In this document: in pieces, positions 21,066 to 41,908 of the stretch
How positions within the stretch are numbered: the first letter of the stretch is position 1
Layout: each line of letters opens with the position of its first letter
Source: an uncultured Rhodospirillales bacterium
GTDB lineage: Bacteria; Pseudomonadota; Alphaproteobacteria; JAWKYA01
NCBI GenBank assembly: GCA_964397465.1
Contig: CAYNIC010000002.1
Location: forward strand, 52,162-116,161
Direction of reading: 5' to 3'
Length of the DNA stretch: 64,000 nucleotides
Notes under the pieces: model-generated
What the model saw: the letters and a program-made list of their open reading frames with translations, nothing else
What the model was told of the DNA's origin: nothing
Database searches by the model: none
Translations under genes and position numbers: made by a program

Positions 21066-21540
21066 TTAACACGTCAGGGTGGCAGTCCCCGCAGAAAGGC
21101 TTGCCCGTGTGCGCATAATAATAGTGCAGCGGTAGTCCATAACCGTTTCGTTCTTGTGATTAAGGGTTTTGCAGATCAGGGTCACGTAACCGCGGTCGGC
21201 CCGGCTGGAAGGGCGGATTTCCAAAATCTCCGCCTCGGCCCGGATCGTATCCCCCCGGACGAACCGGCTTTAACCAACGAAGCTGCTCGAAACCCGGGGA
21301 TCCCATACTGCTGGCGGTAAACTGACGTTCTTGCCACAGCAGGCGAAAGGTTATGGCGAGGGTCTGAAATCCGCTGGCGATTAGCCCGGTATACGGACCT
21401 TTCTCGGCTGCACCTATATCGATATGGAAAGGCTGAGGGTCATAGATAAGGGCAAAATCAATAATGGCCGATTCGGTGAAGGTGTAGCCTCGGCTTTGCC
21501 AAATCTCGCCGACTTTGTAGTCTTCAAAGTATCTATCCAT
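21066..21540 (-). pseudogene. MaoC-like (R)-hydratase/hotdog-fold gene interrupted by a +1 frameshift in a C6 homopolymer
   Basis: The ORF 21160-21540 encodes a MaoC N-terminal half up to ...LRWLKPVRPG. The -1 frame then continues as DTIRAEAEILEIRPSSRADRGYVTLICKTLNHKNETVMDYRCTIIMRT* to 21066. The switch point is the CCCCCC run at 21250-21255. Confidence 0.6.
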
Positions 21541-21619
21541 GACCCTTGGATCCTTGTCCTAGGGATTCAGCTCACCGCAAAGCAGGACAAGGGTCAAGAC
21601 CAGATAAAGCGTAAACCCC

Positions 21620-22525
21620 TTACGCCGCGTGATCTTCGCGCATGGCCTGTTCCCATCCGATCAGCGCCAATTTACGGCCGGATCCCCAGAGATAGCCGCC
21701 GACGTGACCTGTGGCACGAATAACCCGGTGGCAGGGAATGAGGACAGAAACGGGATTGCGGCCATTGGCCGTTCCAACTGCGCGGGCGGCCTGGCCGCCG
21801 GTATACCCGAGACGTTTGGCCAACATGGAGTAGGTCGCAAGGCCGCCCGGCGGAATGGTCAGCAAAGCCTCCCACACCTTGACTTGAAAAGGCGTGCCTT
21901 GAAGATACAGCTTGAGCGGAGCGGTTCCCGGCTTCGGAAGACGGTCGCGAAAAATAAGCGGGATATAGGCCGCCGTATCGACGGGGCTTTCGACGAGACG
22001 CGCCGCCTGCCAGTTGCGGGTCAATAGAGCGAGGGACGGTTTGGGATCAGGTGTATCGACGAAGCCGAGTCCGACGATACCGCGCGGGCTGGCCACAATT
22101 AAGCAATCGCCAAAGGGCGAGGGATGAACGCCCCACTGCAAAGTCATTCCGTCGCCCTGACGTTTAAATTCTCCCGGCGTTGCCGCTTCGTAAGTGATCA
22201 TTAAATCATGCAGACGGCTAGGGCCCGATAATCCTGCATCTAACGCTGCATCCAAAACCGAGGCTGAGGCGGCAAGGCTTTGCTTAGCCGCTTCTAATGA
22301 CAAGTATTGTTGAAACCGTTTCGGGCTGATGCCGACCCAGCGGGTGAATTCGCGTTGGAAATGAAACGGACTTAAGCCGACGGATTCGGCGGCGCGCTCC
22401 AGATCAACCGCGCCGGCTTCTGGATTAGCCGCAAGAAAACCCAAGGCTTTTTCAATACGGCGATAGGCTTCGGATCTTTCCATCGTGGTTTCGACAGGGT
22501 TAATCTCTTGCGTTTGCAGAAGCAT
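21620..22525 (-). CDS. AraC-type HTH fused to methylated-DNA--protein-cysteine methyltransferase (Ada-like, lacking the N-Ada Zn domain)
   Basis: N-terminal AraC second HTH (LSPFHFQREFTRWVGISPKRFQQYL). C-terminal MGMT with the active-site PCHRV motif (VLIPCHRVIRATGHVGGY). Confidence 0.8.
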   Translation of the reverse strand: MLLQTQEINPVETTMERSEAYRRIEKALGFLAANPEAGAVDLERAAESVGLSPFHFQREFTRWVGISPKRFQQYLSLEAAKQSLAASASVLDAALDAGLSGPSRLHDLMITYEAATPGEFKRQGDGMTLQWGVHPSPFGDCLIVASPRGIVGLGFVDTPDPKPSLALLTRNWQAARLVESPVDTAAYIPLIFRDRLPKPGTAPLKLYLQGTPFQVKVWEALLTIPPGGLATYSMLAKRLGYTGGQAARAVGTANGRNPVSVLIPCHRVIRATGHVGGYLWGSGRKLALIGWEQAMREDHAA

Positions 22526-22527
22526 GA

Positions 22528-22737
22528 TCAAGCTCTCCAAAACGGTTTGGCCGTTTCTTCAAAAACATCCCGGCTTTCTAATCCGATATCGCGCAGCATT
22601 GTATCACTCATCGTCGCAAGCAAGTGCCGCTGATAGCTTCGCTCGTACCACGATAAAACAGTATCGATTACGTTTGTAAGCTGAAACGTTAAGTTTAAGT
22701 GGATCAGTCCGGGTAAGCGTAGCGATGTTTGTTTCAT
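22528..22737 (-). CDS. DUF1127 small protein
   Basis: 69 aa. The C-terminus LLATMSDTMLRDIGLESRDVFEETAKPFWRA matches the DUF1127 signature (LxxLSDxMLKDIGISRxD). Confidence 0.65.
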   Translation of the reverse strand: MKQTSLRLPGLIHLNLTFQLTNVIDTVLSWYERSYQRHLLATMSDTMLRDIGLESRDVFEETAKPFWRA

Positions 22738-22831
22738 AGCGATACCTCCTGCATATAGTCAGAAGGTAGCGATGGGAAGCACTTAAACCCACCCGGTTCT
22801 TGCTATGAAGACTACCTGATTTTCCAAAGAA

Positions 22832-23632
22832 TTAGCCAGGAATCTCTATGGTTCCTTCCAGATAAAATCGGGTTTTTCCGCGCATAAGAACGCGGTCATT
22901 TTTTAAGGTGCAGCCAAAATCGGCTCCGCGCGTCGAAGCTTGGCGGGCGCGTAAGGTTGTTTTCCCCAGGCGTTTGGCCCAATAGGGAACAAGAATGCAA
23001 TGGGCGCTGCCGGTCGCGGGGTCTTCGTCGATCCCGGCATGGGGGGCAAAATAGCGCGAGACGAAATCATGGTCTGGCGTATCACCCGGTGCGGTAACGA
23101 TCAGACCATCACGATCGAGCTGCTTAACAAAGTGCAAATCCGGTTTCATCTGACGCACAGTAGTCGCATCGCTAAACACCGCTAAGTTTTTAGAGGCAGC
23201 CAGCATCTGCGTTGGTGCTGCACCTAAGGCCTTTGCCAGACCGTGCGGAAGGGAAATGTGCTGTGGAGGTTGCGCGGGAAAATCCAATTCGTACTGATCG
23301 CCGCTGCGGCGAACGATTAAAGGTCCGGCGGTTTGGGTTGTGAATTGCGTCGTTTTCAGGGTTGGCTTTAATTTTTCCATGATGGTTGCCGCGGTCGCCA
23401 ATGTTGCATGACCGCACAGATCGACCTCCAAAACCGGCGTGAACCAGCGCAGGTGAAAACTATCACCTGTAGGAACAAAGAAAGCCGTTTCCGCTAGATT
23501 GTTTTCCGCGGCAATTGCCTGAAGCAGACCGTCCGGAAGCCAGGACGTCAGAGGGACGACGGCGGCCGGATTTCCCGAAAACGGCCTTCCCTCGATGACA
23601 AAGGCGTCCACCTGATAAAGAGGAAGCTGCAT
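22832..23632 (-). CDS. PhzF-family isomerase
   Basis: MQLPLYQVDAFVIEGRPFSGNPAAVVP...ETAFFV, the classic PhzF/YddE N-terminal block. About 266 aa. Confidence 0.8.
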   Translation of the reverse strand: MQLPLYQVDAFVIEGRPFSGNPAAVVPLTSWLPDGLLQAIAAENNLAETAFFVPTGDSFHLRWFTPVLEVDLCGHATLATAATIMEKLKPTLKTTQFTTQTAGPLIVRRSGDQYELDFPAQPPQHISLPHGLAKALGAAPTQMLAASKNLAVFSDATTVRQMKPDLHFVKQLDRDGLIVTAPGDTPDHDFVSRYFAPHAGIDEDPATGSAHCILVPYWAKRLGKTTLRARQASTRGADFGCTLKNDRVLMRGKTRFYLEGTIEIPG

Positions 23633-23636
23633 CGTC

Positions 23637-23852
23637 CTATGCTTTCCAAAAGGGTTTGTTGATTTCGGCGGCGGCATCGCTGCGGGAAATGCCGATGTCC
23701 TTCAACATGGCATCGCTGAGCCGGGCCAGGTGCCGCCGCTGCTTCAGGCGGGCGAGCCATGTTTGATAGAGGGGAGTCGCCCGTGAGGTGTCCTGGCTTT
23801 GGTTCAAGGATCTTGGGCTGGTTAAGTCTGTTTGCTTCAGAATTGTAACCAT
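23637..23852 (-). CDS. DUF1127 small protein (second paralogue)
   Basis: 71 aa ending ...LARLSDAMLKDIGISRSDAAAEINKPFWKA. There is a 4-nt gap to the phzF start. Confidence 0.65.
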   Translation of the reverse strand: MVTILKQTDLTSPRSLNQSQDTSRATPLYQTWLARLKQRRHLARLSDAMLKDIGISRSDAAAEINKPFWKA

Positions 23853-23934
23853 GACAATCTCTCCATGACTTAATAATTGTTATAGTTACATAGTGACAAT
23901 TTAACCTCTACAGTTATATTGTCCCGGTGACATT
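23852..23934. promoter_or_regulatory. Divergent promoter region with four TGACA(A/T)T-like direct repeats (candidate MocR operator)
   Basis: TGACAAT at 23852 and 23894, TGACTTA at 23866, and TGACATT at 23928. Confidence 0.3.
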
Positions 23935-23943
23935 GGAGGGTAA

Positions 23944-25323
23944 ATGACCTGGACTCCTGTAATTGCCGATCGCACCGGCCCGATCTATCGCTCGATTGCC
24001 GATGCCTTGGCTGAGGATGTAGCGCAAGGCCGCTTAAAGCCGGGCACGCGGCTGCCGACCCATCGCGATTTGGCTTATCGGTTAGGCGTTACCATTGGCA
24101 CGATCACCCGCGCCTATGCCGAAGGGGAAAAACGCGGCCTCCTGGCCGGGGAGGTGGGTCGCGGCACCTTTGTCCGTCCGTCGACGAACAATATTATGAT
24201 CGAAGATCAATCCTCGGAGCCGATCAATTTGACAACAGTGGTGCCGGGGACCGTCGCGACCGTCGCCCCCATAGTTGCGGCGAAAATGAAAGCCGTCGCT
24301 GAAGATCAAAATTTTTTTAGTCTTTTGACCTACCATCCCTATGGCGGCAGTGAACGGCATCGCGCGGCCGGGGCGGTGTGGATGCAGTCCTTGGGAATCG
24401 AGGCTGATCCTGCCCGCGTTTTAATCTCCGCCGGGGCGCAGCATGGGATTTTAATCGCCTTTGCCGCCTTGGCCCGCGCCGGCGATACCGTGGTTTCCGA
24501 ATGTTTATCCTATGGCAGCGTGCGGTCGACCGCCGAGCTTCTAGGTTTGAAATTACGCGGCTTGGCGATGGACGAGCACGGGCTGCTTCCCGATGCCTTC
24601 GATGCGGCATGCCGAAGCGGCAAGGTGCGGATCGTTTATTGCCTGCCGACCCTGCATAATCCCACGACCTTGATCATGCCCCCGGATCGTCGGGCGGCGA
24701 TCGCCGACATCGCCCGGCGGCATGACGTCATGATTGTTGAGGACGATATCTACCGGCCCTTGGCCAAGAATCCGCCGCCGCCGATTTCGTTCTATGCGCC
24801 CGAGCGTACGGTGACGATCGCCGGGTTATCCAAGGCCTTGATGCCGGGGTTGCGGGTGGCTTATCTCCATGGCCAGGCGGCCGTATCCGGCGCCTTGGCC
24901 GGCGCGGTGCGGGCGAGTGTCATGATGACGAACCCGATCATCAATGAAGTCGCCGCGCAGTTGATTGAAAGCGGTGATGCGGCGCGAATCATGCAGGCTA
25001 ATCGTGTCGATGCGGCGCAGCGGCAGCAGATTGCCCGCCGGATTATGCCGAGGGTTTTTGACCGGTGCGAAGCCGAAGCCGCTCATCTCTGGCTGCCTCT
25101 GCCGGCACCGTGGACGTCGGCCAATTTTATTGCCATTGCCCGCGAACGCGGCGTCAGCATCTGGCCGGCGGAAAGTTTTTATCATGGTCTTGGATCGCCG
25201 CCGGCTGCCGTTCGCTTGGGTCTGGGTGCTACGGGATCGCACGAGCGGCTGCAGCGGGCGCTAATCATTCTGCGTGAATTGCTGCAAAGCGATCCGATGG
25301 CGGAAACTGCGCCGGTCGTGTAG
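23944..25323 (+). CDS. MocR/GabR-family transcriptional regulator (GntR HTH plus PLP-dependent aminotransferase-like domain)
   Basis: N-terminal wHTH (IYRSIADALAEDVAQGRLKPGTRLPTHRDLAYRLGVTIGTITRAY), then a ~350 aa type-I aminotransferase fold. Confidence 0.85.
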   Translation: MTWTPVIADRTGPIYRSIADALAEDVAQGRLKPGTRLPTHRDLAYRLGVTIGTITRAYAEGEKRGLLAGEVGRGTFVRPSTNNIMIEDQSSEPINLTTVVPGTVATVAPIVAAKMKAVAEDQNFFSLLTYHPYGGSERHRAAGAVWMQSLGIEADPARVLISAGAQHGILIAFAALARAGDTVVSECLSYGSVRSTAELLGLKLRGLAMDEHGLLPDAFDAACRSGKVRIVYCLPTLHNPTTLIMPPDRRAAIADIARRHDVMIVEDDIYRPLAKNPPPPISFYAPERTVTIAGLSKALMPGLRVAYLHGQAAVSGALAGAVRASVMMTNPIINEVAAQLIESGDAARIMQANRVDAAQRQQIARRIMPRVFDRCEAEAAHLWLPLPAPWTSANFIAIARERGVSIWPAESFYHGLGSPPAAVRLGLGATGSHERLQRALIILRELLQSDPMAETAPVV

Positions 25324-32991: not shown

Positions 32992-34353
32992 TTAAGGAAT
33001 GAGGGGCGACCAAGCCGGATCAGAGGCTTCGAGCGGCGTTACGATTTCCCGCAAGTTCTGCCCGGAAAGGTCGATGCTGTAGAGTTTAGTGGTGCCTGAA
33101 ACGCTTTGTCCGCCTTGGGTTTGCCGGAAAAACATCAAGACGCGGCCGTTGGGCGACCAGGTCGGGCCTTCATCTAAAAAGCTTTCGGTCAGGAGGCGCT
33201 CCTTGCTGCCGTCGGGTTTCATGACGCCAATATAAAATTTACCACCTTGCATCTTGGTAAAGGCGATCAAGTCGCCGCGAGGCGACCAAACCGGGGTCGC
33301 ATAGCGGCCTTGGCCAAAACTGATTCGCTGAACATTCGAGCCGTCGGCGTTCATGACATAAAGCTGCTGAGCCCCGCCGCGATCAGAGTTAAACACGATC
33401 TGGGCATTGGTATCCGAATAGGACGGCGAGGTATCGATCGCGGGATGGTTGGTCAATTGCTGAACCCGCCGTGTCTGCAGATCCATGGCGTAGATTTCAG
33501 AATTGCCGTCATTGGACATGCTGAGGACGATTTTCTTGCCGTCATTTGAGAACCGGGGGGCAAAGGTCATGCCGGGGAATTCACCAACGACTTCGCGCTG
33601 ACCGCTATCGATGTTGAACAGATAGACCCGCGGCTTATCCGCAAAGTAAGACAAATAGGTGATTTCCTGGGTCGACGGCGAGAACCGGGGGGTCAATACC
33701 AGGGAAGACCCGTCGGTTAAGAACTTATGATTGGCGCCATCTTGATCCATGATGGCCAAGCGCTTGATGCGGCGGTTACCGGGGCCGCTTTCCGCCACGT
33801 AAACGATACGCGTATCGAAGTAGCCCTTTTCGCCCGTGACCCGCTCGTAGATCGCATCGGAGATGATATGGGCGATGCGCCGCCAGTTCTGCGGCACCGT
33901 ATAGTACTTACGGCCAGCCATGGGCTGGCCTTGGAAAATATCCCACAGACGGAATTCAACCCGTAATCGGCCGTCGGGCTCCATCGCGGCGACCCCTGAA
34001 ACCAGGGCTTGGGCGTTGATGGTTTTCCAATCCTGAAAGCGCGGTTGGGCTTGGGCCAAATCAGCCGGCGATTGCAGAAAAGCCCGTGGATCGACGGCGC
34101 GGAACAGGCCTGATCTTTCTAAGTCGGCGCTGACGACGGCGGCAATTTGCTTGCCGTAATTCGAGGCATCAGCGGCGCCGCCGAAAAAGTCGGTGATGGC
34201 GATCTGAATGGGATTGGGAACGGGACTTTCGATATCTACGCGGACTTCAGCCCGGGCAGAAGTGAAGATGACGGCGCTGGAAAACAATCCAATAACGGCG
34301 GCAAGAGCAAGCTTGCTGCCAACGAGAGGTAGCCGATATCGCGTGAACATCAT
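32992..34353 (-). CDS. tolB: Tol-Pal system beta-propeller protein TolB
   Basis: 453 aa. A signal peptide, a TolB N-terminal domain, and WD-like propeller repeats. Confidence 0.9.
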
Positions 34354-41747: not shown

Positions 41748-41908
41748 AAAGAGTGCCGCGCCAGCCGTTGACCGTTTCTATCCACTTGGGCCTGCCATAG
41801 CAGGTGGGCGCCATGTACCAAAGCCAAGGCTCTGGCAGGGACAGCTCCCATAGTGTGGAAATTGGCCCCAGGGAATGAGTGGTCTGACGTACTGGGCAGC
41901 ACCAAGAC
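41748..41908 (-). ncRNA. ssrS: Candidate 6S RNA (SsrS)
   Basis: A 174-nt non-coding gap in the conserved zapA-ssrS-ygfA position. In the minus-strand transcript the 5' GUGCUGCC can pair with the 3' GGCGCGGCAC to form a closing stem, as expected for 6S. No ORF. Confidence 0.45.

Follow-up and report, generated by a model that had tools for sequence, protein, structure and literature searches.

Do the four genes packed together on the minus strand of a 64,000-nucleotide (nt) stretch from an uncultured Rhodospirillales bacterium (contig CAYNIC010000002.1, positions 52,162 to 116,161; hereafter the window) form one operon? They encode a PhzF-family isomerase, an Ada-like AraC/MGMT fusion protein and two small DUF1127 proteins, next to a divergent MocR-type regulator, and a first-pass annotation of the window had read them as a single tightly coupled operon mixing isomerase chemistry with alkylation repair. 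Our analysis suggests that the locus probably consists of two adjacent minus-strand regulatory units, each headed by a DUF1127 gene directly behind a transcription-factor operator: unit 1, comprising DUF1127#2 and phzF next to MocR, and unit 2, comprising DUF1127#1 and the Ada-like gene, here termed cada2. Two transcription units are the likelier arrangement because a predicted promoter of the type found across the Cada2 family lies between phzF and DUF1127#1, which argues against the single operon; the proposed functional mix is likewise unsupported, since each unit also occurs without the other.

Gene organisation of the locus

The four minus-strand genes occupy positions 21620-23852 and are listed below with the divergent MocR gene.

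21620..22525, minus strand: cada2-like gene, 301 amino acids, AraC-type helix-turn-helix without a Zn-Cys4 domain, fused to an O6-alkylguanine-DNA alkyltransferase
22528..22737, minus strand: DUF1127#1, 69 amino acids, YjiS-like, PF06568, C-terminal KPFWRA
22832..23632, minus strand: phzF, PhzF-family isomerase/epimerase, 266 amino acids, PF02567 and TIGR00654
23637..23852, minus strand: DUF1127#2, 71 amino acids, PF06568
23944..25323, plus strand: MocR/GabR-type regulator dependent on pyridoxal phosphate (PLP), 459 amino acids, GntR and Aminotran_1_2 domains

Pfam and NCBIfam matches confirmed the identities previously assigned to all five genes, and the divergent orientation of MocR was also correct. 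The reported junction lengths were reproduced when starts behind good ribosome-binding sites were used: along the four-gene run they measure 2, 94 and 4 nt, with the DUF1127#1 stop codon 2 nt ahead of the cada2 ATG and the DUF1127#2 stop codon 4 nt ahead of the phzF ATG, and the divergent region between DUF1127#2 and MocR is 91 nt long. The cada2-like start was placed at the ATG at 22525, behind a GGAG ribosome-binding site (the longest open reading frame would open at TTG 22540), and that of phzF at ATG 23632, where TIGR00654 begins at profile position 1, and not at 23677. In comparison with two congeners, the ratio of nonsynonymous to synonymous substitution rates (dN/dS) was 0.04-0.2 across the five genes, with the single exception of a value of 0.5 for DUF1127#1 (range 0.2-0.5), and all five evolve as coding sequence under purifying selection. 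A terminator scan gave no site between phzF and DUF1127#1 or after cada2, and the hairpin behind the cada2 stop codon was no better than shuffles (z = -1.55). A known defence system was rejected, as the PADLOC defence models matched none of the five proteins.

A predicted Cada2-type promoter in the spacer

Cada2 of Caulobacter (Kamat et al. 2024) has no A-box/Zn-Cys4 domain and carries a B-box-binding domain, an RLHD helix-turn-helix and a PCHR alkyltransferase whose methylated cysteine activates the protein; it is autoregulated and recognises a DNA motif composed of GCAA, an AT-rich 3-bp spacer and CGG (PMC10957082). An element of this kind is located inside the 94-nt spacer, upstream of DUF1127#1 and not immediately upstream of cada2, together with a candidate -10 hexamer.

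22789..22803, minus strand: predicted Cada2 binding element GCAAGAACCGGGTGG (GCAAG-AAC-CGG-GTGG), exact match, with B-box GCAA(G), AT-rich spacer and X-box CGG
22763..22768, minus strand: candidate -10 hexamer TACCTT, which follows the Cada2 element after 20 nt

The length given for the spacer in the first-pass annotation was therefore right, but the spacer is no passive gap and holds a complete predicted Cada2-type promoter. All fetched loci (related loci are given by their L numbers) were searched for GCAAGAAnCGGGTGG with up to 2 mismatches over 14 positions. Of the 71 Cada2-like genes having enough flank, 65 have a match no more than 200 nt upstream, compared to 9 matches in 885 kb of control DNA. 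The homologues of two cultured species, Sinorhizobium meliloti and Acinetobacter baumannii, have a similar upstream element with 1 mismatch each to the consensus. A position-weight table across the 65 loci revealed a TAnAAT box 20 nt past the element and no -35 hexamer, which is likewise lacking in the window promoter; this layout suggests an activator-dependent promoter.

The spacer block is conserved in the congeners and was also recognised in two distant loci. L091, L092 and L177 have box, DUF1127 and cada2 in the order seen in the window, the box occurs twice in L093 and L176, ahead of DUF1127 and again ahead of cada2, and in L110 phzF is followed directly by box and cada2. Given the element upstream of DUF1127#1 and the same order in other loci, DUF1127#1 is best read as a predicted gene of the Cada2 regulon; DUF1127 is not mentioned in the Cada2 paper (PMC10957082). 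A second Cada2-like match in the window, at 33678-33692 and with 2 mismatches, falls within coding sequence of the opposite strand; it was treated as chance, 12% of shuffles giving at least two matches.

The spacer RNA (22740-22770, minus strand) may also fold, with CCUUCU, overlapping the candidate -10 box, pairing with the ribosome-binding site AGGAGG ahead of DUF1127#1 (z = -3.5); no covariation supports this hairpin. If it is real, the anti-Shine-Dalgarno arm would be carried only by read-through transcripts from phzF. The hairpin was rejected as evidence of an RNA switch because each arm is independently constrained, one as a -10 box and the other as a ribosome-binding site, and a known riboswitch or leader was likewise rejected, since an Rfam search of 21400-24100 gave no match at E <= 1.

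The Cada2-like protein

Judged by its motifs, the AraC/MGMT protein is a Cada2-like adaptive-response regulator. Pfam matches were obtained to HTH_18 (2.6e-14) and PF01035 (7.8e-27), and the NCBIfam Ada model covers the protein only at model positions 86-351, leaving the first 85 unmatched. In BLASTP, residues 40-297 align to residues 100-353 of Escherichia coli Ada with 31% identity, placing F54, H55 and R58 opposite Ada F114, H115 and R118, the B-box-reading residues (PMC4437013). The N-Ada Zn(Cys)4 methylphosphotriester-repair domain with Cys38 is absent, in agreement with the first-pass annotation, as evidenced by the unmatched part of the Ada model and by a Cys-free stretch of 140 residues at the N-terminus, the earliest cysteine being C141. 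With the Cys38 sensor domain missing, the sensor, if any, must be the C-terminal cysteine. An alignment of 26 homologues revealed that 6 of the 7 residues of S52-P53-F54-H55-F56-Q57-R58 are invariant, P53 being the exception, and that R104-L105-H106-D107 (RLHD) and P264-C265-H266-R267 (PCHR) are invariant throughout. All sequence and promoter features of Cada2 are consequently found in the window, namely the lack of Zn-Cys4, SPxHFQR, RLHD, the PCHR alkyltransferase and a predicted promoter with B-box and X-box.

An Ada protein without its sensor domain had looked like the strangest component of the locus, yet it belongs to a known and widespread type of regulator and is in this sense ordinary. 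The Cada2-like family is large and spans multiple phyla (~7,900 of 8,000 scored candidates at E <= 1e-10), and several members already carry annotation as AraC-family or methyltransferase proteins. The view that the locus is not a described system did not hold for this component, as Cada2 and its B-box and X-box promoter are published (PMC10957082), nor for the MocR side, as MocR regulons with PhzF/COG384 and RimI-type GNAT genes are also published (PMC5320631).

MocR and its predicted operator boxes

The MocR protein contains PF00392 (GntR) at residues 15-77 and PF00155 (Aminotran_1_2) at residues 112-440, and its PLP-lysine is assigned, at motif level only, to K297 in GLSKAL. Its top NCBIfam model is EhuR (NF052286) at 455.4 bits, below the curated cut-off of 480. 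On these scores and motifs the protein is assigned to the EnuR/EhuR clade, with EhuR as the closest family, but it is not called EhuR. Three predicted operator sites were located in the divergent intergenic region and its edges.

23918..23934: predicted MocR operator box 1, ATTGTCCCGGTGACATT, 1 mismatch, 9 nt upstream of the MocR start codon
23876..23901: predicted central operator region, ATTGTTATAGTTACATAGTGACAAT, two overlapping imperfect boxes
23842..23858: predicted MocR operator box 3, ATTGTAACCATGACAAT, perfect ATTGT-N7-ACAAT, overlapping the DUF1127#2 start codon

The half-sites are of the type of the EnuR/EutR consensus operator ATTGTnnnnnnACAAT (PMC8739950), and variants with N6 and N7 spacing are conserved in at least 10 distant loci. 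Box 1 overlaps the predicted mocR promoter GTGACA-16-TATATT at 23893-23920 on the plus strand, and in distant loci its equivalent covers the MocR start codon; the operator region displays inverted and direct repeats spaced 34 bp. In L174 and L175 the central box is perfect, ATTGTACGACGACAAT. The equivalent of box 3 sits on the DUF1127 ATG in L056, L093, L111, L174 and L175, and several MocR-side DUF1127 proteins start with M-x-T-I (ATG NNT ACA AT), an effect of the third box coinciding with the start codon, so that the DNA operator constrains the protein N-terminus.

Boxes with at most 1 mismatch were found in every orthologous MocR-DUF1127 intergenic region examined and are perfect in most. 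The three-box layout is present in most of L020, L056, L082, L093, L111, L174, L175 and L176, some having clearly only the first box, and MocR-type boxes also precede DUF1127 operons in two Azospirillum genomes. Perfect boxes were rare in control DNA, numbering 2 over 822 kb and 0 over 405 kb. No MocR box was found near DUF1127#1 or cada2 in the window.

No ectoine genes (ehu/eut/doe) were found in the window neighbourhood (~10 kb) or in any related locus. In the regulon reconstruction of Suvorova and Rodionov (2016), PhzF/COG384 and RimI-type GNAT genes are frequent members of MocR regulons, and the MocRs of Azospirillum B510 were left without a regulon; DUF1127 is absent from its main text, and its supplement has no methylated-DNA, COG2169 or COG0350 entry, so no Ada-like gene (PMC5320631). 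The present locus thereby supplies a defined predicted operator, a regulator and a target set for an orphan EnuR-like MocR.

The PhzF-family enzyme

PhzF matches PF02567 at 2.9e-48 (165 bits, cut-off 27) and TIGR00654 with 124.5 bits (cut-off 76.2). Invariant in 26 homologues are E48 (NLAETAF), C73-G74-H75 (CGHAT) and D204 (EDPATGSAH), of which we take E48, H75 and D204, judged by motif, to be equivalent to the catalytic residues E45, H74 and D208 of Pseudomonas fluorescens PhzF. The nearest solved structures are the uncharacterised 1s7j and 4dun, and true PhzF structures match the window protein only at E ~1e-21 with a profile; the enzyme thus belongs to an uncharacterised subfamily with two solved but unannotated structures. 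No phzA-G phenazine genes were found around the locus in the window or at any of the related loci, and the window PhzF stands outside any phenazine cluster. In relatives, the partners of the enzyme are a dehydratase and a GNAT (see below), which points to a beta-substituted amino-acid-like compound as its substrate.

DUF1127 proteins

DUF1127#1 and DUF1127#2 match PF06568 at 30.5 and 45.9 bits, respectively (cut-off 23.3), share the DIGL/DIGI core and are ~48% identical over the domain, supporting the earlier view that they are paralogous. Over ~25 loci the proteins follow the pattern W..R..QR..L..L.D..L.DIG..R....E..KPFW and constitute a single subfamily whose C-terminal E..KPFW(R/K) extension is missing in YjiS. 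The orthologous position of DUF1127#1 is occupied in L091, L092, L093, L176 and L177, and that of DUF1127#2, beside an orthologous MocR, in L020, L056, L082, L093, L111, L174, L175 and L176. A division into MocR-side and Cada2-side orthologue groups was rejected, mean domain identity being 0.475 and 0.49 within the groups and 0.47 between them.

The first-pass annotation had described DUF1127 proteins as RNA-binding, which is one reported behaviour, as for CcaF1, but other members bind the sensor kinases PhoR and SsrA (PMC8034643, PMC12501420, PMC11707872, PMC12595884), and YjiS and the small Agrobacterium proteins are among the sensor-kinase binders (PMC12501420, PMC11707872). The arginine content of the window proteins, ~9-10%, is under the family average of 14% (PMC12501420). 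The DUF1127 genes of Brucella are controlled by the LysR-type VtlR, and a link of DUF1127 to MocR or Ada/Cada2 is not mentioned in these four papers (PMC8034643, PMC12501420, PMC11707872, PMC12595884). In L092 (6313-7805), a LysR-type regulator is divergent from a gene for a 165-residue DUF1127-domain protein, adjoining the unit of box, DUF1127 and cada2.

Our guess is that the DUF1127 proteins act as small feedback modulators through protein contacts. A more specific idea, which we consider rather improbable, is that the KPFW-ended protein is the dedicated partner of the transcription factor whose operator precedes it, DUF1127#2 with MocR and DUF1127#1 with Cada2, being made first and feeding back on its regulator. 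If this were true, DUF1127 might for example time or reset the irreversibly methylated Cada2 and would constitute a general first-gene feedback module, which would also explain the yjiR-yjiS pair of E. coli and the links between LysR (VtlR) and DUF1127. Apart from this idea, DUF1127 genes in several lineages either have a predicted Cada2-type promoter to themselves or are interposed between such a promoter and cada2. This would place a member of a poorly understood family of small proteins in the alkylation adaptive response, a connection that is easy to test.

Conservation of the two proposed units, together and apart

Congeners, whose proteins are 84-98% identical, retain the whole region, which is weak evidence because all the surroundings are syntenic too. 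The closest Cada2 homologues situated on long contigs (53-57% identity) are more informative, and three of these distant, Rhodospirillales-like loci are given here (<>, divergent).

L174: thiD, MocR<>DUF1127-PhzF-x-PALP-GNAT-cada2
L175: MocR<>DUF1127-PhzF-PALP-GNAT-cada2, in which DUF1127 is uncalled yet present
L176: thiD, MocR<>DUF1127-PALP-PhzF-GNAT-DUF1127-cada2

The same arrangement or portions of it were found in L093, L111, L148, L091 and L110. It is thus kept beyond close relatives, and the absence from related genomes that the first-pass annotation had named as a sign of fortuitous adjacency was not observed. The PALP enzyme of the relatives is threonine dehydratase-like, of the PRK06110 type (478-517 bits), and since their units include PALP and GNAT, the window carries a reduced version of the arrangement.

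Both units also occur separately. The MocR unit is found without cada2 in L020, L056, L082, L032 and Azospirillum sp. B510 pAB510d, where the operon (L171, AZL_RS29770-29755) reads DUF1127-GNAT-PALP-PhzF behind an EnuR-type box; this cultured carrier is a possible experimental model for unit 1. An ISAs1-family transposase gene and rnk lie between that operon and the MocR gene. Conversely, cada2 lacks an accompanying MocR unit in L177, L092, L154, S. meliloti and A. baumannii (followed by alkB in the last), and most Cada2 homologues have no MocR/PhzF partner. A PhzF-profile scan of GTDB served as a background set comprising, among the matches listed, orthologues of 45-57% identity from many phyla without the closest relatives; ~70 of these 80 listed loci have neither the MocR unit nor a cada2 partner. 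In L177 (4238-5918), MocR, DUF1127, PhzF and PALP have been lost and a 123-residue GNAT remnant is retained, along with the Cada2 box, a DUF1127 gene missed by Pfam and cada2, within an ftsH-glmM-thiD backbone.

Within ~10 kb, the locus is surrounded by housekeeping genes plus DUF1127-PhzF. Taxonomic placement by SerA best hits alone gave a Rhodospirillales-like alphaproteobacterium, the best named hits (70-72% identity) including Indioceanicola, Magnetospirillum and Nitrospirillum. The gene thiD, convergent to MocR and overlapping glmM, encodes a hydroxymethylpyrimidine phosphate (HMP-P) kinase (TIGR00097, 319 bits), and on these grounds was rejected as a MocR-linked pyridoxal kinase; this housekeeping gene is conserved beside MocR as faithfully as cada2. 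On the 3' side of cada2, a MaoC-like dehydratase gene (21160-21540, minus strand) encodes 126 residues here compared to 157 in congeners. Its frame is shifted by an extra G in a GGGGGG run near 21245, so that it is a pseudogene or else the homopolymer was misassembled. In the distant locus L091, too, cada2 is followed by a MaoC-like match. Rfam gave a single match above the gathering score in the window, a 6S RNA (RF00013, 79.5 bits) at 41749-41905 on the minus strand.

Model and alternative explanations

Gene content, motifs, the placement of the operator sites and the conserved arrangement are direct observations; as to the logic of repression and activation, the inducers, the start sites, the PhzF reaction and the role of DUF1127, we infer the following. 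In unit 1, the MocR of the EnuR/EhuR clade would bind the three ATTGT-N6/7-ACAAT boxes of the 91-bp intergenic region. On the pattern of EnuR, it would hold both its own promoter and that of DUF1127#2-phzF repressed until its PLP reacts with an amino compound, whereupon the PhzF-like enzyme would isomerise or epimerise an amino-acid-like metabolite, in sister lineages together with the PRK06110-type threonine-dehydratase-like enzyme and the GNAT acetyltransferase that their units also encode. In unit 2, the Cada2-type promoter of the spacer would drive DUF1127#1 and, by translational coupling, cada2; by analogy with Caulobacter, transfer of the methyl group from O6-methylguanine onto Cys265 would turn Cada2 into an activator of this promoter, so that induction would yield DUF1127#1 plus, by coupling, more Cada2. 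Unit 2 may gain some basal expression by read-through from unit 1, no terminator having been predicted between them.

It is quite unlikely, in our estimate, that the four genes instead form one functional operon, with a single transcript under MocR control and a mechanistic tie between PhzF chemistry and alkylation repair, for instance if the pathway handles or generates an amino-acid-like alkylating or nitrosatable compound, so that the alkyltransferase is co-expressed. The tight junctions and the lack of a predicted terminator between the genes are consistent with it, as is the fact that in at least 9 lineages (~50-57% Cada2 identity) cada2 remains joined to the 3' end of the MocR unit even though internal gene order and downstream flanks vary; L110, with box and cada2 directly behind phzF, also fits. 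However, cada2 retains its family-wide promoter even within the cluster, the window has no MocR box near DUF1127#1 or cada2, both units are found independently, and plain synteny can explain the conservation because thiD is conserved equally beside MocR. For this last reason inherited synteny is a serious alternative to functional linkage, namely that two unrelated units were joined once in the ancestor of the Rhodospirillales-like clade and have been held together by a low-rearrangement backbone without functional interaction. We regard this as unlikely. The ftsH-glmM-thiD ... serC-serA backbone does flank L020, L056, L093, L174, L176, L177 and the window, L177 has lost MocR, DUF1127 and PhzF with DUF1127-cada2 kept in place, and most Cada2 homologues, like ~70 of the 80 PhzF loci among the GTDB matches listed, are partnerless. 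Yet the flanks past cada2 vary (MaoC-serC, inositol phosphatase, lactamase_B-TatD) and cada2 stays on the MocR unit, and internal genes have been shuffled, lost and gained without parting the two halves.

A further explanation, that the DUF1127 reading frames are mainly cis-acting translated leaders setting downstream expression by translational coupling or attenuation, we judge to be highly improbable. It would agree with the gaps of 2 and 4 nt to the next start codon, with the GGAG ribosome-binding site of cada2 being formed by the conserved C-terminal W-R codons of DUF1127#1, with the predicted hairpin between anti-Shine-Dalgarno and Shine-Dalgarno sequences in the spacer (z = -3.5) and with an attenuator, dependent on an upstream open reading frame, described ahead of a DUF1127 gene of S. 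meliloti (PMC12218461). By contrast, the amino-acid sequence of DUF1127 is conserved over ~25 loci despite DNA divergence, its dN/dS is below 1, the spacing to the next gene in other loci ranges from 2 to >100 nt, L093 and L176 have a separate box for cada2 behind the DUF1127 gene, and DUF1127 homologues act in trans in other bacteria (PMC12501420).

Several points weigh against the two-unit arrangement as proposed above. Its promoters and start sites are predictions, a simple scan of the minus strand failed to predict a sigma-70 promoter for DUF1127#2, and a single long transcript is possible, terminator-like sites being missing both between phzF and DUF1127#1 and after cada2. Every locus that keeps both units together also has the thiD backbone, so that the adjacency may be inherited synteny rather than selected linkage. 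The MocR effector and the sign of regulation could differ from those of EnuR, because the protein scores under the EhuR cut-off and its boxes are mostly N7 and not N6, and the function of DUF1127 is a guess. On balance, the reported gene cluster is real and made up mostly of known kinds side by side. What is new is modest and testable: a DUF1127 gene heads both Cada2-type and EnuR-type MocR units, this pairing recurs across lineages, and the units stay adjacent.

Comparison with known systems

Cada2 of Caulobacter crescentus shares with the window protein the lack of an A-box/Zn-Cys4 domain, the SPxHFQR and RLHD motifs and the C-terminal PCHR, and in both cases a GCAA/AT-rich/CGG element lies 5' of the protein's own transcription unit, implying autoregulation. 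Unlike in Caulobacter, a DUF1127 gene intervenes in the window between promoter and cada2 with a translationally coupled gap of 2 nt, no alkB or other repair gene is attached, and cada2 stands at the 3' end of a unit under predicted MocR control. Methylation-dependent activation is known for Caulobacter Cada2 and predicted, by analogy, for the window protein. E. coli Ada has the B-box-reading F/H/R residues in common with the window protein, and GCAAGA(T/A)T is common to both promoters (ada sequence AAAGCGCAAGATTGTTGG). Unlike the window protein, Ada possesses a methylphosphotriester sensor domain with Cys38 and residues that contact the A-box (R45, R71), and the window element is located at about -47 to -33, not further upstream as in the ada promoter.

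On the MocR side, the window protein resembles EnuR/EhuR (EutR), the repressor of ectoine and hydroxyectoine catabolism, in its best score being to the EhuR model, in ATTGT/ACAAT half-sites that are identical (PMC8739950), in boxes overlapping promoter elements and in the PLP-lysine motif. It differs in scoring below 480 bits, in its mostly N7 boxes, in having no adjacent ehu/eut/doe genes and in its predicted target, DUF1127-PhzF, to which relatives add the threonine-dehydratase-like enzyme and GNAT. The MocR regulons with COG384/PhzF and RimI GNAT (PdxQ and unnamed groups; PMC5320631) likewise show a divergent MocR and a PhzF-like predicted target, with GNAT and PLP-enzyme genes as co-members in the relatives of the window, but neither DUF1127 nor an Ada-like gene is listed there. 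Finally, E. coli K-12 (NC_000913.3, 4570162-4571915; L170) has the MocR-type gene yjiR paired divergently with the DUF1127 gene yjiS across a 176-nt intergenic region. Unlike the window MocR, YjiR belongs to another MocR clade and the pair has no ATTGT/ACAAT boxes; YjiS has no KPFW extension, and no enzyme gene follows yjiS. DUF1127 thus stands first behind a predicted EnuR-type MocR operator in the window and behind a different MocR in E. coli.

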